This document shows positions 2,443 through 64,000 of a DNA stretch of 64,000 bases, one piece after another. The position numbers and the translations under genes were made by a program. Numbering within the stretch: the first letter of the stretch is position 1; every line of letters begins with the position of its first letter. This DNA is from Mytilus edulis (Eukaryota): NCBI RefSeq assembly GCF_963676685.1, contig NC_092347.1, forward strand, positions 72,788,001-72,852,000. Direction: 5' to 3'. The notes beneath the pieces are model-generated. The model searched no databases. It was not told the origin of the DNA and saw only the letters and a program-made list of their open reading frames with translations.

Positions 2443-3603
2443 TCAGAGAGAGTCCAGTTTGTCATTTATAATTCTAATAAATAGGCACTGTTTTCGGAGT
2501 TTAGATTTCTGTTTTTGGTTCATAATAGCATTAAATTTTATAACATTACAGTTCATTAGGTATTTCTTGTCAATAAGTAGTGTTCTATCTGCCAGGAGAC
2601 TGCTGCATTCCATTACATAGTGGTATTCATCACCTATAGCAACTCTGCACAATGGACACTTTCTCTGTTCTCGGGGAATGTTTTGCCATCTGCCATTTTC
2701 AATCGGCAGTTTATGGTTCATGGTCCTAAACCGCGACATTGTTATTACATCTTTGTTATTAAGTACGTTAAGGTAGTGTTCGAAATTGTGTGAGGTCTTG
2801 TATAGGCGATAATTCAGTGCTTTCGGCGAATCGTTTACCTTTCCTGTCCATGACTGTGTAAACTGATCTTCTAGTCTTTGTTTAATTGTCGATTTAATGT
2901 TAGGTGATGTGTTTTGGAATGACCATACGTAAGAGAATCCACAATTGTCTAGAATACTTTTCATCTTGTCTAATGATCGCAATCGAAATGTTGTTTCTTG
3001 TGATAACTTTAAAAGGTATCTAAACATGACAGCAGCGAGCTTACTTTCTTTACCGGTAATCAACTTTGTCCAATAAGATACCATTCTAGTTTTTATATCT
3101 ATTTCTAGGGGATACCGACCCAATTCTCCGTAAATGAAGTCGTTTTGAGTAGATGGCTTAAGATGTAAAAGTAGCTTAAAAAATTTAGTTTGAACTCTTT
3201 CTAGTATATCTATGTTTTCGTAACCCCATATTTCGCATCCATATAGCAGAATAGGTTTTACCAGTATGTCAAATAAATAAATCTACGTGGCATTTAATTG
3301 ATAAATTGTGAATTCTTCCCTTCCTTAAATCTTCGTACATTGCACTTATTGCTTTGTCCTTTAGATTTTGTTTGCATTGTTTAAAGCTGCCTGTTTTGCT
3401 GAAAATAATTCCTAAGTAGTTAAAGTGTTTTACAGTTTCAATATGATGATTGTTGAATCGGAAAAGTGGAGGGTTTGTCGTTCTTCCTTTTAAGATTAAG
3501 ATCTTAGTTTTAGCAACATTTACTCGCATCTTCCAGGTTTCGCAATACTTTTTAAATTTGTTAAGTGCATGTTGCAGTTGGTCAGGGGATTCTGCCAGGA
3601 TTA
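2443..3603 (-). mobile_element. 5'-truncated non-LTR retrotransposon (RTEX-like LINE), ORF2 C-terminal part
   Basis: ORFs 3269-3640 and 2443-3123 join through one frameshift (TTTA duplication near 3275). Motifs: VILAES..LQ..L...C..WKMRVNVAKTK, YLGIIF, KPILLYGCEIWG, YGELGRYP, and a C-terminal CPLC...DEYHYVMEC knuckle. Confidence 0.88.
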
Positions 3604-20928: not shown

Positions 20929-21188
20929 TGAAACGGGCCCTTTTATTATTTTCAATAACTATTATTATTCTTCTTATTCCGATATTAGTATATTAGAAAT
21001 GAGTCTGTTAGTTTAATTCAAACGCGGATATTTCATCATATTGTACATTGTATTATACTGCATATATGGCAATATGCCAATCAATCCCGAATTAAAGTAA
21101 TACACAAACCATCTCAATTATAAATGGAACTTAATTAATTAAACTTTCAAAATCTTTTGCATAAATTGCTCTCATTTTGTATTTGTAG

Positions 21189-22339
21189 TGTGGAATAACA
21201 AAGGTGGAGCTGGAAAAACTACCCTAACATTTCATCTTTCGACAGAATATGCGATACAAAATCCAAAAGTTAAGGTAGTAATTTTTGATTTGTGTCCACA
21301 AGCGAATATTTCTGCAGCTCTACTTTCGAATAAAGACGAGAAGGACGGAGGATTTAGAGGAGATGATATGGTAAGAGCGATACCAGACGGCAGAAAAGTA
21401 AGTTGTTCTGATATAGATGGAAAAGTCAAGACTTATGACCGAACTGTGAGTGGATATTTGATGGCACAGAACGATATAACAAAAATTAAACATTCCGAGT
21501 TTCTTGTACAACCTGCTCTAGAAGTCCACCCAAATAAATTTATCAGTGAAAATCTTTTTCTTCTTTGTGGAGATCAGTATTTGGAAGTTATTTCTAGAGG
21601 CTTAGATAGCGAGAGGATCCTTCTTAGACCGCAGAGTACAGATGGGCCATGGAAAAAGATTACTTCGTATATGAAAGTATTTAGAGATGAATTGGTTAAA
21701 AGCGATCCCACCAGTAACTACGTGTTTTTCATAGATACCAACCCGAGTTTTTCCTTTTACACGGAACTAGCTATTACGGCTGGAACACGTCTCATCGTTC
21801 CTATAATGTCGGATGATTTTTCCCTTTCTGCCGTGAAATCAATATTTTATTTGTTGTACGGAGTTGAGATTGATAATAAGAGAGATGTACGATATCGTAC
21901 TTGGAAAACCTTCGAATTTTGGGATCGAGCAAATACAGAAAAAATTAAAGTACCACAGATTAGCCTTGTTATAAACAATAAGATTATACCGTATGCTGGC
22001 AGGAGTGCAACAGCAGTTAGCGCCAAGCAACAGGAAATACAGAGGTATTTAGATAGGGTTCGTAGTGAGAGGCCAGAAATATTCGATGTACCGAAAGATA
22101 CCAATACTGCTGAACCTATGGATACCAGTGAATTGGAGTCCAACGTATCTATTTTAGAACTTAAAGACTTTCATTCGATAGCAGTCACATCGCTTCACTT
22201 AGGTTGTCCGTTGTCAAAGCTTCCGAGAAAGATTGAAATTGATGGTGTCAATATTCCAAAACCCACTCAGAATAGAGATGCATATTTGCCTGGTCTTCTT
22301 GCAATTGTAGAAAAGATTAAAAAACTGACAACCTGTTAG
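21189..22339 (+). CDS. ParA/MinD/Soj-family (AAA_31/CbiA-like) P-loop ATPase, second coding exon; full spliced protein about 394 aa
   Basis: Deviant Walker A WNNKGGAGKTT, Walker A' VIFDLCPQAN, Walker B YVFFIDTNPS, then RLIVPIMSDDFS. Preceded by the acceptor TTTTGTATTTGTAG| at 21188. The ORF is uninterrupted. Confidence 0.9.
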
Positions 22340-28400: not shown

Positions 28401-31400
28401 TTGCAATGTATAAAGTAGATAAACATATCATTTGCTTCTTCTTTGTGTAAGCGGACGACGGTTCCACCTACCCATCACTCTTAGAAAAGCGAAGGCATAA
28501 CTTTTAACGAAACTGTCTTCACCATTTCTGTCAAATATTATGTTTCCTGTCTCACAACTTATACTACTTGTGTCTTCTGGATACTTCACATTCTTAATGG
28601 TAAGGATTTCTTTATCTGCACTGAGCTGATATTTATGTGAAAAATTGCTATCATCTACAAGTACATAATTTCAAAATCGTTATCATATTAATATTGAAAA
28701 TATCAGGTGCGCAACACAATATTATAAAAATGGAAAAATGCTGCATAATATAACGCACACCTGATACTTTACAGCATCAATGTGCAGCAAAAAAAGCTGC
28801 AATACACTGTGCTTCCTTTTAAAATGTTTCAAACAAAAAGGACTAACAAATTATTGTCTTTATATTAATAGATTTAGATCAGAAATATCCTGGACAATTA
28901 GGAATCGTTACATGTTTACCCATAATTTGTCAATGGTCTGAGACATGTTAAGGGTTGCAGATGAGGTGTTCCCGCTACCAATCTCTAACTACACTGTTGT
29001 TGTGACGTTATCTATTGAGAGTTCAAATAAAAGTATCTATGCAAGCAGACGCTCTTATTTCTTAGCCTTAATGTGTGTTAAATAAGACCACTCTTCGATA
29101 GCTATGTTCTCTTACGGTTGTTTCCTGTTAAATGTATTTTGCATAGTGATATATATCTCGCATCACACTACCCCGAGTGTTACACGAAAAAATGATACGA
29201 AAACTACGTTAATTTGATTGGCATGTCTAGTATAATGAGACGCTATTAAGATATTTTATTGTCAGTTCGGTACGCCATTGATTACTTTCCAACTTGAGAT
29301 TAATACGATAGGCATTTCGTCCATGGCAACGGATATATGTGATTTTTTTCAATTATAAACAAAACATTCATACTCTTCGTCATGGTATCTTAAATTTTTG
29401 TCTTCATATTTTGAAGTGTAAATAATTTTGCAAATTATGAACACCTGATATTAAGATATTTGTCCTTCAACGCTGATCTTTACCATTTTTTATACACTTC
29501 TAAAATGGTTTTCAAAATACAATTAAGGTAATCTAGCTATTCATAGAGTCGGAATTCCTTAGTAATTAGGACAATTCAATTTTTGTAAACAGTTTATTTA
29601 TGAATACCAATTCGTCTTTTAATTTCGATAATAAACTTGAAACGATAATGGATTTAGACAAAATGATAAACAAAATGATCAACAAGGTAGTTTTAGTACT
29701 TGTAGTTTCGTTTGGGATGGCATCTTGTCAAAACAGGTGTACTCAAAGGAAGGGATAACTGATAATTACGTAGCATTTTACTATCAAATGTTTAATTGTA
29801 AGATGACTAATAGGAAACAATTGCAGACACTATACGAGATATAGAGCAGATGTAAATAGCAAACATTTTCAACATGATAAGATCCACAACTTAATATGAC
29901 AGTACTTGCAAATTTATTCCATATATGAGCTAGTGTCATTGAATGCTGATTTTAAACCATTTTTTGTCGGGAATTATAACAAAAAGGCAATATAATAGCA
30001 ATTTGAATGCATGACATTAAAGAGTTGTTTTCATTATATTTTTTTAGTGTATTGAATTGGCGGGGGGGGGGGGGGAGGTAAAAAAAAACTCACATTGTTC
30101 ATAAAACAATTCTTTTCCATTTATTCTCCAAATAGGTTCTGAAGGAGTTTTTTCATCAGGAAGGGATTCCATTTTGCACTTAAACACAGCATTTTGACCA
30201 TCCGGGATAACTTGGGATTTAAGTGTCTCACCTTCTTGAAAAATTGGTTTGGCTAATTGATATAAAAGATTACTTTTTAATAAACTGAATTATACAAAAT
30301 CGAATTTTTGCTTTTCATGTCGGTTCTTTTACGTCGTTGTCTTTTAATCAGTCGGCTTTGAGCGTTCCTGATGAAGAAAAGCGCGTCGGACACATGCAAC
30401 TTATAACGTTTTGTTTTCATTCTTTTATTTTAAAAAAACATAGCCGTTTTCGAAAGAGACTTTTTTTGCCGAGTACGTATTAATTAATGAGTGATATCTG
30501 TTGGTCATATATTTATTAACCACGACTTTAACATCTCGGCTTTGATGTAATAAAAAAACGCGGTTTGCGCGTAGTTAATATAGTAAGGATAATTTCATTT
30601 AATAGTGCTTGTTGTTCAACATCGACATACGACTGAATTAATACAAGAACGATACATTCCATCTTCGCTGGCCAAGGGGTTACGATCCACTCCCGTTCTC
30701 ACTTGTTTTTTCGCGTTGCTTCTGTGTAAAAGAAAGTTGTTTGTCGATATTTACGTATATTTTTTTTTATTTGTAAATGATTTTCTCATGTATTTTTTCA
30801 TTCTGTAGCTGATTTTTTTCGTTAAATACCTGTAATATTTTTTTATAGCACGAACTAATTTAGATCCCAGTACAATCACTGATAATGAATACTTACATGT
30901 TACATTGAGATATATACGAGCGTGGACAGCACCCATTACGTTTATGGCACTGCAAACGTAAGTTCCTTCATCGGATACATTTAAATGTTTTATTCTCAGG
31001 TTTCTCCTGACACTAGGATCAGTGAATTGGTATTTGCTACTTGGTTGAATTTGTTGATTGGAGCCAGACAAATGCCATTCAATATCTGGAAGGGGACTAC
31101 CATGAAATGAAAGTATAGAAACAACTGTGTTATTGTTAAATGTTGGACATTTGTTCAGAGGAATAGATTAATAAATTTGAAAAAGGCAAAGTAGAAAAAA
31201 TACAAATGAAATTCTATTAAGAGCAACACAGAAATGTGAACTACGGAAAACGGAGATGTTGCTGTGACGTTGCTCACGATGTTATTACATGTTCCTCAGC
31301 TATAGATTGTAATAAAAATAAATACGTAGACTGGTTAGTTCGATAAAAATATTGTGATGTCTGTCATTAGAATGACTTAAAAATAAAGAAAAATAAAACC

Positions 31401-54958: not shown

Positions 54959-56442
54959 TGTAACGGTTTCGTTATTTAAATTTATAGGTAGATTGATTTA
55001 CAACCATCACAGTTCTTTTATGAACGGTGGGAGGGCTAAACAATTTTCAAGCATTTACTGGACTTATAGTCGTGAAATCACATCATTATAATGAACTGTG
55101 TCGGGAATGTCAGGATCATATTATTACTCCAACTGAACGTTTATTTTATGTGTAATGTATAAAGAGTTCTTACCTTTACGATTTATTGTTTGCATTCCGT
55201 GGTAGCATCTTAAATTATTCATGTCTATAATTTGGAGTCCCGTTATTTTTTATGTACATTGATTTTCATGTACGACGCTCTGGTATCATATATTGTCGTC
55301 GCCATTATTGTTGACAAATTACGTCACACATTGAACCTTGGGAAAGTGCAGGTGGCATGACGTCACACAAGTGAACGTCAATTCTACTATGTTCTTATAC
55401 AAAATGTGTGTCACGGTGTGTCTTAGTGTGTCGTCCTTGTATATAAATTTGCGACATCTAAGCACTCGGGTTCAGTCTGTTTCGTCTGGGCGCCATTCCT
55501 ACGACTTTCAAATAACTAAAGCTGCTTACATATTTTTGTCTTAAGGTTAGCATATAGGATTATAAATATATAAAAAAGGGTTAAAATAATATTTCTGGAT
55601 ATCATCTACAATTTGTCGGTGACAATAACTTTCATTGATTTCATTTAAGAGAATTATACTGATTCAATACATATCAACACTGCGACACGGTGCCGACACA
55701 CATAAGTGTGTCGTGTTTCTAACAACGTATATAAAGCAGATTTTTTATACATTCTTTATATAAATAAAGATACGAAATTCACTTTTGAAAGTTATATAAT
55801 ACAAGGCGTATTAAAACTAATAGAAGAATAGAATATTGGAATTATTACTCTGAATAGGTTTTTCGTAGTATTTAGGCCTTATAGGACGACACACTTTTAA
55901 AGCAGAGAAATAGTAATAACTCGACACACATACTTATATCATACAAGAGAATATTGTTTTAGACTAAGTAAGGGAATAAATTGTATATTATCATATTATT
56001 TGTTTATTGTCATAGTATTGTTCATAAGAGATATATACTGATACCAGAGCCATTCATTTGCTACCATAGATGTAAATAAGATATCATAAATCTATTTAAG
56101 ACGTATTAATAACTGTTTCTTGGTAATTAATCGACTTATTGTTTATTGTTATAAAAGATCATAATATATTTCACTTCTAGTTAATAAATCGTTAACTTAT
56201 TAAATATCTCCTTATATATGCCATACGTGATTCACTTTATACTATCAACTGTACCTAGAGGCGTTTACGTTCAGGATCATTCCGCTAAGGTTTAATAATA
56301 GGAGTACGTTATTGCCCATCCTCCCTTATAAAACGCTCTAGATCCGTTGATAGGTACACAAAGTTTCTTGGATATAAAATTGTTGTCGTTGAGGAGATTG
56401 TCGCTGATTACATCTCACAGGCAGCAGGTCGGACCCGCTTCA
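54959..56442 (+). repeat. 5' LTR (about 1484 bp)
   Basis: Starts TGTAACGG, identical to 63548. The end is placed at the CA immediately before the PBS; the distal part cannot be compared with the truncated 3' LTR. Confidence 0.88.
55319..55478 (+). promoter_or_regulatory. LTR promoter: three CRE-like sites, three phased GTGTGTC repeats, TATA box and initiator
   Basis: TTACGTCA at 55319, TGACGTCA at 55358, GAACGTCA at 55373; GTGTGTC at 55406, 55416 and 55426; TATATAAA at 55440; TCAGTC at 55472. Confidence 0.7.
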
Positions 56443-56443
56443 A

Positions 56444-56461
56444 TGGTGGCAGCGGTGGGAT
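56444..56461 (+). other. Primer-binding site complementary to the tRNA-Leu 3' end
   Basis: TGGTGGCAGCGGTGGGAT is the reverse complement of ATCCCACCGCTGCCA+CCA, the 3' end of metazoan tRNA-Leu (AAG/TAG type). Confidence 0.9.
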
Positions 56462-56505: not shown

Positions 56506-58062
56506 ATGTATCAAGACCCAGCTGATATGACTACCTTCGACAATGACCGATCACCAACTTTAGACCAAGATATAGACGACACGCGGGCCCAGACGACAGG
56601 ACTCCCCGCACCAGTTAGAGAACGATATATCAATGCAACACCCTCTGGAGAAGTACAGGTGCGGGTTAAGACGAAACCAACTAAACCAAGCCACGTAAGG
56701 AGCTCACTATCAGATATCGGACTTAGCGGATTAAGGAGTGGACACAGTGAGTCGGAAAAAGAACGTTTTGGCGGAGCAGAATTTTCTAGAAACAGAAATG
56801 ATTCTGCATTTGATAGATCAGCGGCATTCATAGCTGATAATCAACGGTTATCCCATGGAAGGAGAGATATATCGTCTGAAATCGGTCCAAATGATAGTAA
56901 ATTTACTTCGGGGCGGGACCCCGCGGACACTCGGGCGTTTGTTCAACGCCATTTGAATATATCTCACGATCCTATATCGTTGGCTATGCCAAGTCGGGCT
57001 ACCACGAGAGAGGAAAGGGTTACCCCATGGAAGATCCGCACTGACACTAGAGCTCCCGATTCTTTTGGAAATCAGGAACGGGAGTTTCCGGACGTTATGT
57101 CAGGGTTTGAGGATAATTTTCTTGGTCGTTGCGACAACCAAGTAGGACGCCAACGTTCCGTATTGACGGACAGACGGAGGGCAGATGATAATATGACATC
57201 ATTGCCGACAAACAGGTACATAAATTCAGCAAGTACGACGCAGAAATACAAGAATCCAACCAATTATGACGGGGAGAGTAGTTGGCAGGACTATCAAGTC
57301 CACTTTGAGATGGTATCTGAGATGAATGGCTGGGACGACACAACAAAAGCTCTTGAATTGGCAACAAGTTTGAGGGGCTCTGCCCAAGCAGTACTGAGTG
57401 ACCTACGACCAGACTTAAGAAGAAGCTACGAACACTTAATAGCGGCTCTTACATCAAGATTCCAGCCAAGTAACCAGTCAGAATTATACCGAGCACAAAT
57501 GAAGAATCAAACTCGTGGGAAGGGACAATCATTGCCAGAACTAGCACAAAGTATCAAAAGGGTTACTAGACTTGCATACCCTACAGCTCCTATTGAGGTA
57601 CGAGAACAACTAGCGCGCGATTGTTTCATGGATTCACTCAACGATCCAGATCTTGAATGGGCAATTTTTCAAGGCAAACCAAAAACCATAGACGATAGTG
57701 TCAGGATAGGGCTAGAATACGAGGCATTTACATCAGGACATAGAAGGAAATACTCAAATAGAGCGCCTCTTATACGCCAAACCACGGGAATTTCTATAAG
57801 TGACTCAGAGGAGTCAGAAGATATGGATAACATCATTGAAAGGTTAGCTAGGATAGAAAAACAGGAAACCAGGAAAAAACCAGCAGGACCTTGTTACTTT
57901 TGTGGAGCAAAAGGTCACATTAAAAGGGAATGCAGAAAATTTCAGGCGTCGCTGGGGCGACAACAAAATAACAATGTTAACCAGAAGGCAAATACTAGAA
58001 CCTACACACAAGGCACACAAACAGCCAATCTTACGGGTGTGTTACCGCCGGGAAACTATTAA
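56506..58062 (+). CDS. gag: Gag (518 aa): disordered N-terminus, capsid region, CCHC zinc knuckle
   Basis: YDGESSWQDYQVHFE..NGW capsid start; CYFCGAKGHIKREC knuckle; position directly after the PBS. Confidence 0.93.
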   Translation: MYQDPADMTTFDNDRSPTLDQDIDDTRAQTTGLPAPVRERYINATPSGEVQVRVKTKPTKPSHVRSSLSDIGLSGLRSGHSESEKERFGGAEFSRNRNDSAFDRSAAFIADNQRLSHGRRDISSEIGPNDSKFTSGRDPADTRAFVQRHLNISHDPISLAMPSRATTREERVTPWKIRTDTRAPDSFGNQEREFPDVMSGFEDNFLGRCDNQVGRQRSVLTDRRRADDNMTSLPTNRYINSASTTQKYKNPTNYDGESSWQDYQVHFEMVSEMNGWDDTTKALELATSLRGSAQAVLSDLRPDLRRSYEHLIAALTSRFQPSNQSELYRAQMKNQTRGKGQSLPELAQSIKRVTRLAYPTAPIEVREQLARDCFMDSLNDPDLEWAIFQGKPKTIDDSVRIGLEYEAFTSGHRRKYSNRAPLIRQTTGISISDSEESEDMDNIIERLARIEKQETRKKPAGPCYFCGAKGHIKRECRKFQASLGRQQNNNVNQKANTRTYTQGTQTANLTGVLPPGNY

Positions 58063-58092
58063 AGGTCGAGGGGGAGGTCCCACCTTTGGCCG
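58050..58092 (+). promoter_or_regulatory. -1 programmed ribosomal frameshift signal (G GGA AAC plus downstream stem-loop)
   Basis: GGGAAAC at 58050-58056 is in the correct X XXY YYZ phase. The -1 frame reads on without a stop into pol (..LLKVEGEVPPLADTF). AAAGGT (58061) can pair with ACCTTT (58082). Confidence 0.85.
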
Positions 58093-61000
58093 ACACTTTC
58101 ATTATTAATGAGGGACCATGTATTGAATTTTCTAATGAACAAATTAAGCATGATAGTTTATATTTAAAAATTAATTTAAATGGAATTTTTGTCAATTGTT
58201 TGATTGATACTGGATCAACAATGTCCATATTACATAGTCGAAAATATTTTTCGATACCAGAATCTCAAAGACCCGTATTGTCTAAATCGGGTGTCCGTTT
58301 AAAATTAGCAAATGGAGACCTCCAGGCAACTATTGGAAAAGCAGAATTTTCCATTACAATAAACGGGAAATGTTTTCAACACATCTTATTGATAGCCGAT
58401 ATTGATACTCCGGCTATTTTGGGATATGATTTACTAAACCGACACAACTGTAAGATTGACCTTGGCAAGGGTACTATAACATTTGGAGGCACTGAGATTG
58501 CATGTCAGAAAGAGTCGCAAATGGCGACTATTTTTAAGGTTACCATTGATGAAAATGTTACATTACCACCTTTTTCGGAATCCATTATAAGAGCAACAAT
58601 AGTAGGAGATTCGAGTCATATTTCTGACGCTATTGTTGAACCAGAAGAGCCAAGTACCGACACGAATTTTCATGTCGCACGATCGGTAGTTGACCCTAGC
58701 AATGGTACAATACCGATGCGTATTGTTAACATGATCGACACAGAATGTGTCATCTACCGACACACCAATCTTGCAACATGTGAGACACTACCATATGGTT
58801 CCTTTCAGTCGGAACCTCCTGAAAGGAGTGAAGTAGTAAGAACTAATATAATTACTACTAATACCGAGGACCCAGAAAAGACTTATTCAATCTTACCTCA
58901 CCACCTTGAGGGTCTTTTCGTGGCAAGTAGTCGTGAGTTGTCCGAAGAGCAGAGAGTGCAGTTGGAACATCTACTGATCCGACACAGCGATGCTTTTGCA
59001 AAATCAAAGAATGATTTGGGTTGTTGTGACCTCATTGAACACACAATTGACACGGGTGATGCCAGGCCTGTTAAACAGAATCCGAGACGTCTTCCTCTGG
59101 CCAAACGGGAGGCAGCAGATCAAGAAATAGACCGGATGCTGGAGGGAGGAATCATCGAGCCTAGTACTAGTCCATGGTCGTCCCCAATCGTACTAGTACC
59201 TAAGAAATCCGACGGCTCTTGGCGCTTCTGCGCGGACTTCAGAAAAATTAACCATTTGACAAAAAAGGACTCGTATCCACTCCCAAGAATAGCAGATTGT
59301 CTGGATGCTCTGAGAGGCGCAAGTTGGTATTCGACCATTGATCTGCAAAGTGGTTATTGGCAGGTAAAGATGGCCGAATCCGACAAAGAAAAGACGAGTA
59401 TTGTCACAACTAAAGGCCTTTTCCAATTTAAAGTAATGCCATTTGGGTTATGCAACGCGGGCGCATGTTTCGAAAGACTCATGGAGTGCGTTCTGTCAGG
59501 GCTGAATTGGCAAATTTGCCTGTTGTATTTGGATGATGTCATAATTTTTGCAGATTCATTTGAAGAGCACCTGTCCCGTTTAGAACAAGTTATATCAAAA
59601 ATCAAAAATGCCAATCTAAAAATCTCACCAAAGAAATGCTCGTTTTTCCAGGAAAAAGTTCATTTCCTTGGTCACGTGGTATCTGAAGAAGGAGTTGCTA
59701 CCGACCCTGATAAGATAGCAGCTATAAAAGAGTGGCCTACCCCTAAAACAGTTCACGAGGTGCGAAGTTTCGTAGGTACCTGCTCTTACTATAGGAGGTA
59801 CATTCGTGGATTCTCTGACATAGCTAGGCCACTTCATAAACTTACGGAAAAAGGGGATCGATTTAAATGGACTCAAGAATGCCAAAAAGCGCTCGATACA
59901 CTGAAGGAATGCCTAATCTCAGCTCCGATACTTGGATATCCGGATATTAGCAAACCTTTCATCTTAGATACCGATGCTAGTGGGTACGGAATTGGGGCAG
60001 TGCTATCCCAAGTAACAGACGAAAAAGAGCAGGTTATAGCATATTTCAGCAAGAGTATGAATAAACCCGAAAGGAACTACTGTGTCACTCGACGGGAGTT
60101 GTTAGCAGTAGTTTTATCCATCAAACATTTCCATCACTATTTGTATGGAGTCCCGTTCCTGGTTAGGACAGATCACGGCGCACTCAATTGGATAATGAAT
60201 TTCAAAAACCCTGAAGGTCAAACCGCGAGATGGTTGGAGATCCTTGCCTCCTATAATTTCACCATTCAACACAGACCTGGCAGGCAACACAATAATGCAG
60301 ATGGACTCTCGCGGCGTCCATGTTCTCCGTGTACATACTGCACCCGTCAAGAAAGTAAGAACAGAGAAAATACGGAGAAAGATGACATTGAACATGTCAG
60401 AGTCGCGAAAGGAGCCACAAAGGAACCTGAAATATTCGATACCGAAGAAGTCGACATAGAAGATAACACGGACAGCTTTGAATGGGTACAGAGTAGAAGC
60501 CTCGTGGAAATCGCAACTGCTCAACAAAACGACACGATTTTGAAGCAATTACGGGAGATGAAAGTGAAAGGTACAGAAAGGCCCAATTGGGAAGATATTT
60601 CTTTTCAAAGCATAACTTTGAAAGTTTATTGGGCCCAATGGAACAAGATAAAATTGGAAAATGGTGTCCTGTATAGGTGTTGGCAATCCAAAGACAAGGG
60701 TGAAATAACCCAGTTAATCTTACCTGACTGTTGGCATGAGGAAGTCATGAAAATGCTGCATGACGATCCACCCGCTGGACATTTTGGCCAACATCGCACC
60801 TTAGCCAGAGTTTCGAGACGATTTTATTGGGCAGGTTACAAGGATTACGTTATACAATGGTGTCGACAATGTAAAACGTGCGAAGCTCGTAAGAAACCCC
60901 AGAAACATTATCAAGGACTTATGAAGCAGTACCTGGTGGGGGCACCATTAGAACGGGTGGCCATTGACATTCTTGGCCCTTTACCCAAAACTCATTCAGG

Positions 61001-61916
61001 TTACCGGTACATCTTAGTTCTCACGGACTATTTCACGCGATGGGCCGAAGCCTACCCTATGATTGGTCTGACCGCTGAAGAAGTTGCTGAAATTTTTGTC
61101 AGTCAATTTGTGTCACGTTTTGGAGTTCCAAAACAGTTGCACACAGATAGAGGAACTCAGTTTGAGTCCAAACTGTTTCAGGATCTATGTTCCAGATTAA
61201 AAATAGACAAGACACGAACAACAGCAATGCATCCACAAAGTGATGGAATGGTAGAGCGGCTAAACAGGACTTTGGAAGATATTTTGAGTAAATACGTAAC
61301 TAAACATCAAAAAGACTGGGATGAACATCTACAGTTAGCTCTCATGGCTTACAGGTCATCCGACCATGAGAGTACAGGGTTTTCGCCCTCCATGTTGATG
61401 TTCGGAAGGGAAATTGAACTTCCCATTGACCTGATTTTTGGATCTTACCCAGATAGTATAGAGACGGACGAGAAATCCGAGAATGATTACCTAAAAGATT
61501 TACGAAAGGGGCTTTGGGACATACACGATGTCGCAAGAGAGAAGATGAAACACGCAAGTGATAGACAAAAACGTCAGTACGACACTAGGGTCCATTCGCG
61601 ACAATACCGTGTCGGTGATGCTGTCTGGATATTCAACCCATTGCGAAGAAAAGGGTTAAGTCCAAAGCTGCAACCACACTGGATAGGCCCTTACATCATT
61701 AGAGAAGTTTATACAGACTTAATTTATAAAATAGCGCGGCAGAACGGATCGAAAGAAATAGTCATCCACCATGACAGGTTGAAACCATATTTCGGTTCTC
61801 TCGATACAGTTCCGGAATCATCGTCTGATGTAATAGATACTGGAGAACCGGAACTTGTTTCGTCGCGTCCTTCGAGACTAAGAAAGAAGCCGAAATATCT
61901 AAACGATTTTGTATAA
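58086..61916 (+). CDS. pol: Pol polyprotein (protease, dUTPase-like relic, RT, RNase H, integrase), expressed as a Gag-Pol fusion
   Basis: LIDTGS protease; IDL, MPFGL and YLDD RT motifs; LDTDAS, RRELLA and RTDH RNase H; HHCC (H..H..C..C), D,D35E and W.GPY integrase. Confidence 0.97.
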   Translation: MADTFIINEGPCIEFSNEQIKHDSLYLKINLNGIFVNCLIDTGSTMSILHSRKYFSIPESQRPVLSKSGVRLKLANGDLQATIGKAEFSITINGKCFQHILLIADIDTPAILGYDLLNRHNCKIDLGKGTITFGGTEIACQKESQMATIFKVTIDENVTLPPFSESIIRATIVGDSSHISDAIVEPEEPSTDTNFHVARSVVDPSNGTIPMRIVNMIDTECVIYRHTNLATCETLPYGSFQSEPPERSEVVRTNIITTNTEDPEKTYSILPHHLEGLFVASSRELSEEQRVQLEHLLIRHSDAFAKSKNDLGCCDLIEHTIDTGDARPVKQNPRRLPLAKREAADQEIDRMLEGGIIEPSTSPWSSPIVLVPKKSDGSWRFCADFRKINHLTKKDSYPLPRIADCLDALRGASWYSTIDLQSGYWQVKMAESDKEKTSIVTTKGLFQFKVMPFGLCNAGACFERLMECVLSGLNWQICLLYLDDVIIFADSFEEHLSRLEQVISKIKNANLKISPKKCSFFQEKVHFLGHVVSEEGVATDPDKIAAIKEWPTPKTVHEVRSFVGTCSYYRRYIRGFSDIARPLHKLTEKGDRFKWTQECQKALDTLKECLISAPILGYPDISKPFILDTDASGYGIGAVLSQVTDEKEQVIAYFSKSMNKPERNYCVTRRELLAVVLSIKHFHHYLYGVPFLVRTDHGALNWIMNFKNPEGQTARWLEILASYNFTIQHRPGRQHNNADGLSRRPCSPCTYCTRQESKNRENTEKDDIEHVRVAKGATKEPEIFDTEEVDIEDNTDSFEWVQSRSLVEIATAQQNDTILKQLREMKVKGTERPNWEDISFQSITLKVYWAQWNKIKLENGVLYRCWQSKDKGEITQLILPDCWHEEVMKMLHDDPPAGHFGQHRTLARVSRRFYWAGYKDYVIQWCRQCKTCEARKKPQKHYQGLMKQYLVGAPLERVAIDILGPLPKTHSGYRYILVLTDYFTRWAEAYPMIGLTAEEVAEIFVSQFVSRFGVPKQLHTDRGTQFESKLFQDLCSRLKIDKTRTTAMHPQSDGMVERLNRTLEDILSKYVTKHQKDWDEHLQLALMAYRSSDHESTGFSPSMLMFGREIELPIDLIFGSYPDSIETDEKSENDYLKDLRKGLWDIHDVAREKMKHASDRQKRQYDTRVHSRQYRVGDAVWIFNPLRRKGLSPKLQPHWIGPYIIREVYTDLIYKIARQNGSKEIVIHHDRLKPYFGSLDTVPESSSDVIDTGEPELVSSRPSRLRKKPKYLNDFV

Positions 61917-62126
61917 TTTAGTAAAAGGGTTAAAAATTAAAGAAAATGTTTCCACAAATAAATAAGGGTTTTATAGTCAAAATTTAGGGTTTTAAGGATT
62001 TTCAAATGGTTGTACAGGGTTGGGGTAGGACTTAAAATATAAAGCTGTCAAAGAAAATCAAATCTGTGGCTCTGGTATCTCCTGTTTGGGTTTTCTCGGA
62101 CTCATGGTTAAATTTTATTTTCCCAG

Positions 62127-63386
62127 ATGTTCACCTGTAATGAGTGTATGAGGAACTATCCCACTCTGGAGAGTCTCAAGAGGCATTTGCGCTATGCGCA
62201 CACAGATAATAGAGTGAAATGTAGATGGTGTCCCTACGACGTATCATCCAATGCCACCTACAGGATGAGGCATCATGAGAAATCCAAACACTGGTACAAG
62301 TTCAAGGATGAAAGTAAGGAAAACCAAAAGACACCCACAAAGAAAATACCATCAGTGGTAAAGAAAGTGGAAAAGAAGAAGAAGAAGAAGAAGCAGAGTT
62401 CAACTAACTCTGAGGCTACAAAATTGCCCTCAGCAGAATGCCCACCACTGAGGGAACCATCACCCATGACAGTGGAATTCGAGGAACTCATGGCCACCAA
62501 ACATACAACCCCTACAGAAGACCTACTGTTCGCGTTACCAGTTATAGCAGTCGCAGAGGTAGAGAATTCAGTAGATAACACTCCCCTTTTGAGTGTTCCG
62601 GAGCTTGTTAAATCAGTCATGCAGGATCAAGAACGAGCCAAGATAGCAACTGATAACATTAAAGAATCAGATGGTTTCGAAATTGAGAAGGGAACAGTAG
62701 TCATGGATGACCAATCAGTACCCGTCAGTGAGGACATCCAAGAGCCAGATGAAACTGTAATTAGTGAGCGACCAGGAGAAGACACAGTGACAGAGGTGAG
62801 GGAGCAATTAGTCGAAGTCACCGAGGACGGCATGGAGGTCATCCAAGAAGATATAAGGGTTGTCGAAATAGATGGGATGACGCCCACGCCCAACTACCTC
62901 CCCTCCAGAATTACTCCCACTCATCTAAAATTTGGAAAAATATATGATTATAGACACTTTGGACTGCCCGAGGAGAAGGACAATGAGGATCCCAGGCAGG
63001 TACTTCTTTGTCCTCCTTCGTCTTATCACTCTTCTAATGAGGCTGTACTATTGAAGAGACTCAGGGAACAGGCTAGGAGAAACAACCTTTCTACTACTAT
63101 TTTGCCAGATGGTTATTCTGGTTTAATCAAAACTGAGAGATGTGAGCTCCCGGATGGAACAGTATATTCACTGACCAGTCACTGGGTGCCAGACATCCCG
63201 GTCCGAAGGTACAAGACAACTGGAGTTCAGGCTTCTACTACGCCCGAAACTCGTGATGAAAATATACAGGTTACTCCAGTAACCACCTTATCGGGAACCC
63301 AAACAGAGGAGATGACAGCAATTGTAAAGAAAACATTCGAGGATAAAGAAAGCAGTTGTGACATTATTGCATGTAGATTTTACTAA
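62127..63386 (+). CDS. ORF3 (419 aa): two C2H2 zinc fingers, poly-Lys NLS, acidic disordered region, TQT-like motifs; not an envelope protein
   Basis: CNEC-x12-H-x4-H and CRWC-x14-H-x4-H; KKVEKKKKKKK; no signal peptide or TM. The acceptor TTTTATTTTCCCAG| lies directly before the ATG, and the ORF sits between pol and the PPT. Confidence 0.88.
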   Translation: MFTCNECMRNYPTLESLKRHLRYAHTDNRVKCRWCPYDVSSNATYRMRHHEKSKHWYKFKDESKENQKTPTKKIPSVVKKVEKKKKKKKQSSTNSEATKLPSAECPPLREPSPMTVEFEELMATKHTTPTEDLLFALPVIAVAEVENSVDNTPLLSVPELVKSVMQDQERAKIATDNIKESDGFEIEKGTVVMDDQSVPVSEDIQEPDETVISERPGEDTVTEVREQLVEVTEDGMEVIQEDIRVVEIDGMTPTPNYLPSRITPTHLKFGKIYDYRHFGLPEEKDNEDPRQVLLCPPSSYHSSNEAVLLKRLREQARRNNLSTTILPDGYSGLIKTERCELPDGTVYSLTSHWVPDIPVRRYKTTGVQASTTPETRDENIQVTPVTTLSGTQTEEMTAIVKKTFEDKESSCDIIACRFY

Positions 63387-63534
63387 TCGTGTTTAAAGAC
63401 ATTAGAACCGAACAATATGTGCATCGAATTCAGTTTTATACCAATAATGTGTTCATTTAGCTATTGTTTTGTTTATATGCTCAATTATTGACTATTGTTG
63501 TTAAATGCGTTCAGTTTGGGGACAAACTAAATTT

Positions 63535-63544
63535 GGTAGGGGGG
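63535..63544 (+). other. Polypurine tract
   Basis: GGTAGGGGGG, 3 nt upstream of the 3' LTR TG. Confidence 0.85.
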
Positions 63545-63547
63545 TAT

Positions 63548-64000
63548 TGTAACGGTTTCGTTATTTAAATTTATAGGTAGATTGATTTACAACCATCACA
63601 GTTCTTTTATGAACGGTGGGAGGGCTAAACAATTTTCAAGCATTTACTGGACTTATAGTCGTGAAATCACATCATTATAATGAACTGTGTCGGGAATGTC
63701 AGGATCATATTATTACTCCAACTGAACGTTTATTTTATGTGTAATGTATAAAGAGTTCTTACCTTTACGATTTATTGTTTGCATTCCGTGGTAGCATCTT
63801 AAATTATTCATGTCTATAATTTGGAGTCCCGTTATTTTTTATGTACATTGATTTTCATGTACGACGCTCTGGTATCAGATATTGTCGTCGCCATTATTGT
63901 TGACAAATTACGTCACACATTGAACCTTGGGAAAGTGCAGGTGGCATGACGTCACACAAGTGAACGTCAATTCTACTATGTTCTTATACAAAATGTGTGT
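63548..64000 (+). repeat. 3' LTR (partial, truncated by the window end)
   Basis: Matches 54959-55411 with one mismatch. Confidence 0.95.

Follow-up and report, generated by a model that had tools for sequence, protein, structure and literature searches.

A third gene between pol and the 3' LTR of a bivalve Ty3/Gypsy retrotransposon encodes a zinc-finger protein with a conserved array of LC8-type motifs in its tail

Simple Ty3/Gypsy elements are usually described as consisting of gag and pol, sometimes with an env or fusogen gene. The stretch of Mytilus edulis DNA analyzed here (64,000 nucleotides, referred to as the window) contains an element with a further open reading frame, ORF3, which sits between pol and the polypurine tract (PPT) and 3' long terminal repeat (LTR). 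An earlier reading of the letters and their translations (the sequence-only reading) had noted three 8-mers at 11- to 13-residue spacing in a Thr-rich tail of ORF3, and had interpreted them as docking motifs for the dynein light chain LC8 (DYNLL), in a layout resembling that of the host factor ASCIZ/ATMIN. The three 8-mers were recovered in frame: positions 63210-63311 read YKTTGVQASTTPETRDENIQVTPVTTLSGTQTEE, with the anchor Gln residues at Q368, Q381, and Q392 (spacing of 13 and 11), and Thr accounts for 12 of the final 66 residues. The features of the element are listed in Table 1.

Table 1. Features of the retrotransposon and of ORF3, with positions in the window
Feature	Position	Strand	Basis
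5' LTR, 1484 nt, TGTAAC...TTCA	54959..56442	+	Identity to 3' LTR part, ends read
GACACAC, seven copies in the LTR; candidate binding sites (ORF3 fingers or host factor)	55406..55929	.	Word count against shuffles
GACACAC inverted pair, 8-bp arms, CGACACAC-ATAA-GTGTGTCG	55694-55713	.	Sequence
Primer-binding site, TGGTGGCAGCGGTGGGAT	56444..56461	+	Position directly after 5' LTR
gag, 518 aa, with CCHC knuckle	56506..58062	+	zf-CCHC, E 2.3e-4
TQT 8-mer YTQGTQTA near gag end	58003-58026	+	Sequence
pol: protease, RT, RNase H, integrase; open	58086..61916	+	Pfam
Candidate splice acceptor: pyrimidine run with CAG adjoining the ORF3 ATG	62113..62126	+	Sequence
ORF3, 419 aa (P0001), open	62127..63386	+	ORF call, homologues
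Two tandem C2H2-type fingers, residues 4-25 and 32-55	62136..62291	+	zf-C2H2_4, E 1.1e-3, below cut-off
Lysine run, KKVEKKKKKKKQ; possible nuclear localization signal	62361..62396	+	Sequence
Acidic linker, poorly conserved	62427..62846	+	34 D/E against 9 K/R in 140 aa
Conserved core, residues 254-353, ends at Trp353	62886..63185	+	Homologue alignment; no Pfam family
LC8-type site 1, KTTGVQAS; Gln at core-Trp+15, family-wide site	63213..63236	+	Sequence, homologues
LC8-type site 2, RDENIQVT; IQV anchor, Asp at -4	63252..63275	+	Sequence, homologues
LC8-type site 3, TLSGTQTE; canonical TQT, Glu at +2	63285..63308	+	Sequence
Degenerate site 4, EDKESSCD, without Gln	63339..63362	+	Aligned column: Gln in 7/20 rows
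Short hairpin-like inverted repeat, then PPT (63534-63547)	63514..63547	+	Sequence
3' LTR, cut at window end	63548..64000	+	Match to 5' LTR

The LTR retrotransposon occupies the final 9 kb of the window, where the G+C content is 41-42% as compared with ~32% elsewhere. With two LTRs (TG...CA), a primer-binding site, a PPT, and gag followed by pol, it is a Ty3/Gypsy element. The 5' LTR and the part of the 3' LTR inside the window are identical at 452 of 453 nucleotides, which indicates that the insertion is young, and a loose contig end at 56444 agrees with the boundary of the 5' LTR. The primer-binding site presumably matches the 3' end of a tRNA-Leu. The Pfam match of gag to Retrotrans_gag (E 1.1e-3) was below the cut-off, and the 8-mer near its end is close to listed LC8 binders. 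The inverted repeat before the PPT (63514-63527) reads GTTTG GGGA CAAAC in the window and GTTCG GGA CGAAC at three of the metagenome loci described below (L001, L003, and L005), so that its arms show paired changes; the hairpin was no more stable than shuffled sequences (z of -1.6, -0.08, and -0.11). Elsewhere in the window we observed an uninterrupted 398-codon frame for a ParA/MinD-type ATPase in animal DNA (21143-22339, plus strand; AAA_31, E 3e-14; CbiA, E 5e-8), an exon-sized immunoglobulin I-set domain (30751-31167, minus strand; E 4e-12), and a 279-codon open frame without a Pfam match (2443-3282, minus strand), which we take to resemble the end of a non-LTR retroelement protein.

The ORF3 protein begins with two tandem C2H2-type fingers, the second of which has a 14-residue spacing. 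Their Cys/His pattern is preserved across the ORF3 family, and the feature matches obtained in the Atlas were C2H2 proteins. An Arg at position +6 of finger 1 (12 of 14) was set aside as unremarkable; Arg is common at this position of C2H2 fingers. The fingers, the lysine run, and the acidic linker suggest, by their sequence, that ORF3 is a nuclear regulator. We also considered a membrane glycoprotein of the errantivirus env type. This was ruled out because ORF3 has no hydrophobic segment (the maximum 19-residue hydropathy is 1.11) and because Pfam returned weak zinc-finger matches only and no env-type match. We interpret ORF3 as a soluble accessory protein encoded by a Ty3/Gypsy lineage of bivalves. 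Many proteins of the family end in a short hydrophobic segment past the last Gln site, which is CDIIACRFY (63357-63383) in the present copy.

In the AlphaFold2 model, the core is formed by short helices, one long helix, and a beta-hairpin (pLDDT 74.6, pTM 0.56), and the open shape of the modeled monomer would suit an oligomer. The tail was modeled without secondary structure, with blocks of pLDDT 38-52 (low pLDDT serving as a proxy for disorder), which fits LC8 sites, as these require disorder. Fold searches were made with two models: Foldseek gave no match at E<=0.001 against the PDB, BFVD gave none, and the wide fold search in VIA gave none for one model and a single row at Z 2.0 for the other. 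This lack of a clear fold match shows neither a new fold nor its absence. PDB sequence searches with ORF3 returned weak zinc fingers, a further match at E 0.005 on a short LPDGT stretch being rejected as low, and the Atlas search found no match for the core and tail.

All three motifs of the present copy are imperfect LC8 sites, and site 3 is the single canonical TQT among them, as had been read. Site 1 has an Ala at +1, which by eye is found in none of the 79 listed LC8 binders; site 2 has a Thr at +2, its IQV anchor occurring in three listed binders; and site 3 has a disfavored Leu at -4 and a Ser at -3. Sites 2 and 3 agree with the Gln-anchor rule (T/V/I/S before, T/V/C/I after), whereas site 1 departs from it through its Ala. 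The published compilation comprises 79 binders and 32 nonbinders, and many anchor-bearing peptides do not bind (PMC6607443). A single TQT was reached by 8.8% of 20,000 shuffles of this tail and three [TVI]Q[TVA] motifs by 0.16%, the latter value being optimistic since the pattern was drawn around the motifs already noticed. The motifs in this protein alone are a modest excess and weak evidence; it is the family that is decisive.

Searches for ORF3 homologues resulted in 15, 105, 1, and 30 matches, part of the 105 through generic zinc fingers only. A profile built on the pre-tail region matched 84 of 135 proteins through its C-terminal end, and these were reduced to 39 homologues with less than 60% core identity, with fragments and fused models retained. 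The family layout consists of two C2H2-type fingers, a variable linker, a conserved core of ~100 residues, and a tail. A finger was present in 23 of the 35 core-bearing proteins of at least 330 amino acids, so that the combination of fingers with a C-terminal TQT array proposed in the sequence-only reading holds for the family, with fewer sites than in ASCIZ. No Pfam model was found for the core among the 55 members scanned. The nearest named relatives are Mytilus gene models, and the other named hosts are two scallops, Argopecten irradians and Mizuhopecten yessoensis, and the freshwater mussel Potamilus streckersoni; this host range is provisional, as fewer than half of the 30 proteins examined have a named source. 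Eight related gene models contain pol sequence (9 alignments), linking ORF3 to the element beyond the present copy.

A DNA pattern derived from the core only retrieved five metagenome loci, four of them homologous and two of these (L001 and L005) near kin; the fifth (L004) was a chance match inside an unrelated long ORF and was dropped. In three of the four homologous loci, a purine tract and then TG come after the ORF3 stop, as at a 3' LTR. The remaining locus (L002) encodes a full finger-core-TQT ORF; the ~240 nt read downstream of its stop contained no purine tract, gag and pol matches were absent from the 1.7-kb contig, and ORF3 may here have been captured or be housed differently. In IMG/VR we found neither an ORF3 relative nor the LC8 pattern.

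Across the 39 homologues, TQT occurred 22 times in 1,683 tail residues and not once in 6,764 upstream residues, as compared with 2.8 ± 1.6 in shuffled tails, where none of 2,000 shuffles reached 22. At least one [TVIS]Q[TVCA] motif was present in 30 homologues and at least two in 17, the number per protein ranging from 0 to 5. The Trp at the end of the core could be aligned in 38 of the 39, 34 of which had a tail of sufficient length. In 25 of these 34, a Gln is located exactly 15 residues after the Trp, which is the position of site 1 in the window, preceded by T/V/I/S in 22 of the 25 and followed by T in 19, mostly as TQT. The same Gln was found in all four homologous loci obtained with the core-only DNA pattern, which provides an independent check. 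Site 1 is worn in near relatives (AQW, QQY, TPV, IQD), and site 2 is preserved in close relatives only. Successive anchors are 5-42 residues apart, 11 of 23 intervals measuring 9-14. As the homologues are related, the motif counts overstate independence. The motif array across the family is far beyond chance. The sequence-only reading had made its claim depend on the conservation of the Gln positions, and on that point the claim stands.

The residues flanking the motifs were assessed by the rules of PMC6607443, with the 51 anchors fixed and the remaining residues shuffled 1,000 times. An Asp, Glu, or Pro at +2 was found at 34 of the 51 anchors (13.4 in shuffled tails), 47 had no large hydrophobic residue at -4 (38.4), and 50 had no internal Pro (42.8). 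All exclusion rules together were observed by 44 anchors as compared with 22.0, a value reached in 0 of 1,000 shuffles; the avoidance of aromatic residues at -2 was marginal (43 of 1,000 shuffles). Large residues at -3, in contrast, were rarer than by chance (35 anchors as compared with 42.3; 999 of 1,000 shuffles higher or equal), which is opposite to the published LC8 preference. A small residue at -3 is less favorable for LC8 and not excluding (Jespersen et al. 2019, PMC6607443). The reading of the motifs as LC8 sites is thus upheld by the Gln at Trp+15, by the confinement of TQT to the tail, and by most of the flanks, and is at odds with position -3.

The array is not retained throughout the family. 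In the core tree, 8 of 37 rows have no anchor, and the members of one clade (P0041, P0056, and P0075; support 100/99) possess fingers and core and end 9-10 residues past the Trp, which indicates that the tail is dispensable in some lineages. The losses of the tail showed no significant clustering across the core tree (6 changes as compared with a mean of 7.4 after shuffling). This clade, the fixed distance of the first site from the core, and the imperfection of the sites had been overlooked in the sequence-only reading. A complex of four LC8 chains and two ORF3 tails (residues 353-419), predicted without alignments by a method unproven for disordered peptides and with an animal-like LC8 from locus L008 as a stand-in, gave a median ipSAE of 0.37 (runs 0.13, 0.40, and 0.37), as compared with 0.57 for the control in which LC8 was replaced; this prediction was given no weight in either direction. 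The loci L006-L013 are dynein light chain genes of eukaryotic type from contigs assigned to six bacterial genomes, one such contig having three copies, and are probably host or other eukaryotic DNA in these assemblies.

We propose that the ORF3 tail is a selected array of LC8 docking sites, to which, judging from the conserved motifs, host LC8 dimers probably bind. Each LC8 dimer would align a pair of ORF3 chains in parallel from 10 residues past the core onward, and the clamp would stabilize a weak core-to-core dimer; a fixed short distance between core and first site is what would be expected in this case. Additional sites would add avidity and offset the imperfection of single sites. The pairing step is modeled on the action of LC8 on other clients: LC8 is a dimerization hub that is no longer viewed as a cargo adaptor, and weak adjacent sites can bind through bivalency (PMC6607443).

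Paired ORF3 would then bring two finger pairs into the nucleus and may bind repeated sites in the LTR, the best candidate being the word GACACAC with its seven copies and one inverted pair, and so regulate the transcription of its own LTR, with the acidic linker as a putative activation region. Only 0.13 copies of this word are expected from 300 dinucleotide shuffles of the LTR, none of which contained any G+C-rich 7-mer more than 5 times, and the 54,958 nt of flanking host DNA contain 5 copies. The inverted pair, with its arms four bases apart, would suit a paired protein with two fingers and could equally well be used by a host factor. At the distant locus L003, the LTR-like DNA shows no repetition of GACACAC. 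The LTR also carries four ACGTCA matches at 55321-55380. The acceptor-like sequence in front of the ATG suggests that ORF3 is made from a spliced subgenomic RNA. No read joint to 62127 was detected in the four sequencing runs examined; two raw RNA runs, read to ~6% and ~18%, yielded a single read apiece, and the contigs of run X2 cover the LTR and ORF3 only but were set aside, as that run had been picked using ORF3 and its RNA status is a guess. Taken jointly, conserved LC8-like motifs, a paired ORF3 bound by LC8, and some regulatory role in nucleic acid binding appear likely, and the more specific proposal of an LTR-binding regulator of its own element is tentative, our judgment leaning slightly against it.

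The binding of LC8 could also be real and serve transport or particle assembly, ORF3 linking the RNA or particle to dynein or scaffolding it, with the fingers bound to RNA. Gag, too, ends in a TQT 8-mer, viral proteins are among the listed LC8 binders (PMC6607443), and the nematode protein CERV, a spliced nuclear product, is required for the export of the RNA of its element (PMC10309623). We nevertheless regard this role as unlikely, given the present view of LC8 as a dimerization hub (PMC6607443) and the nuclear appearance of tandem C2H2 fingers, lysine run, and acidic linker. A tail that acts as a sink or mimic, depriving host complexes of LC8 and countering Panoramix-like silencing or the ASCIZ feedback loop, would account for the freely varying motif number (0 to 5), and in Drosophila the piRNA silencing complex is indeed dimerized by LC8, which binds two TQT motifs of Panoramix (PMC7861614). 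Such a counter-silencing device is very improbable, considering that clear Panx homologues are known in insects only (PMC7861614), that LC8 is highly expressed (PMC6607443) and would be hard to titrate with three imperfect sites, and that a constant spacing of 15 residues between core and Gln suggests a structural role.

Two other explanations dispense with LC8. That site 1 alone is at a fixed position, and that residues up to 370 reach pLDDT 78-82 in the core model, would be expected if the Trp+15 motif were a strand of the fold or oligomer of ORF3 itself and the other motifs by-products of a tail rich in Thr and Gln. The downstream sites, however, are also enriched and obey the flank rules, no strand was assigned at the motif in either model, and the core is retained in the tail-less clade, and we consider this explanation very improbable. 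Integration makes DNA breaks, and the motifs might be SQ/TQ phosphorylation sites for ATM/ATR-type kinases, in line with the enrichment of TQ in the family (35 observed, 17.2 expected). SQ, on the contrary, is not enriched (8 observed, 10.4 expected), so that the tails do not qualify as SQ/TQ cluster domains; T follows TQ in 22 of 35 cases; and the conserved Gln is preceded by a nonphosphorylatable Val or Ile in 5 of 25 homologues, including the present copy. We consider kinase sites extremely unlikely. The array of LC8 docking sites remains our preferred reading.

Like ORF3, ASCIZ/ATMIN (ZNF822) combines N-terminal C2H2 fingers with a disordered C-terminal region that contains several LC8 motifs (PMC5963919). 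ASCIZ is a host gene that controls the LC8 gene, and it has 7 LC8 sites in Drosophila (PMC5963919) and 10 listed sites in humans (PMC6607443), as compared with 3-4 in ORF3. ORF3 differs in its location inside an LTR element and in the conserved core directly before its sites, a core with which the disordered tail of ASCIZ is not described. In our best reading, which compares layouts, ORF3 is ASCIZ-like by convergence and, as a retrotransposon gene with a core of its own, not a member of the ASCIZ/ATMIN family. Viral LC8 clients (rabies and Mokola P, Ebola VP35, HHV-7 U19, HPV E4, ASFV E183L) likewise belong to mobile genomes and carry TQT-type motifs (PMC6607443, Table S4); unlike ORF3, their listed sites number one or two each, no retrotransposon protein is among them, and no zinc-finger layout is given for them in the available part of that source. 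Panoramix with LC8/Cut-up (PICTS/SFiNX) has two close C-terminal motifs that act cooperatively and dimerize a nuclear protein in transposon biology (PMC7861614), but its motifs are on the host silencing side, in insects, whereas those of ORF3 are on the transposon side.

An accessory gene beyond gag and pol is shared with errantivirus env, MDG1 sORF2/FAST, and Cer1 CERV. Some sORF2 genes are located downstream of pol (bioRxiv 10.1101/2025.03.14.642691), and CERV is a nuclear, multimeric protein made from spliced RNA (PMC10309623) with, by description, other domains than ORF3; the env proteins differ from ORF3, which has neither a hydrophobic segment nor an env-type Pfam match. In full-text literature searches, which cover subscription papers thinly, we found no description of ORF3 or of any LC8-binding retrotransposon protein, and Repbase may already annotate ORF3. 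The main texts of surveys of mollusc and annelid LTR elements (PMC6238403 and PMC8556966), as far as available, do not contain the words "ORF," "envelope," or "zinc."

These data reveal a third gene of another type, with zinc fingers, an unnamed core, and an array of LC8 motifs, that is common to many diverged elements, and many bivalve gene models annotated as "C2H2-type domain-containing" can be relabeled as pieces of a retrotransposon ORF3. If LC8 binding is true, the 0 to 5 motifs on one scaffold would be a natural series for studies of LC8 multivalency, for which the tail-less clade offers a natural negative control, and LC8, a hub reported until now for host silencing and exogenous viruses, would also be at work on the transposon side. 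In its most far-reaching and doubtful form, the proposal is that a widespread animal LTR retrotransposon lineage supplies a sequence-specific transcription factor of its own, which contains a self-association domain not described before and has host LC8 as a multivalent clamp; such a factor would read LC8 occupancy as ASCIZ does, and LTR activity would be set by a hub that is also used in transposon silencing.
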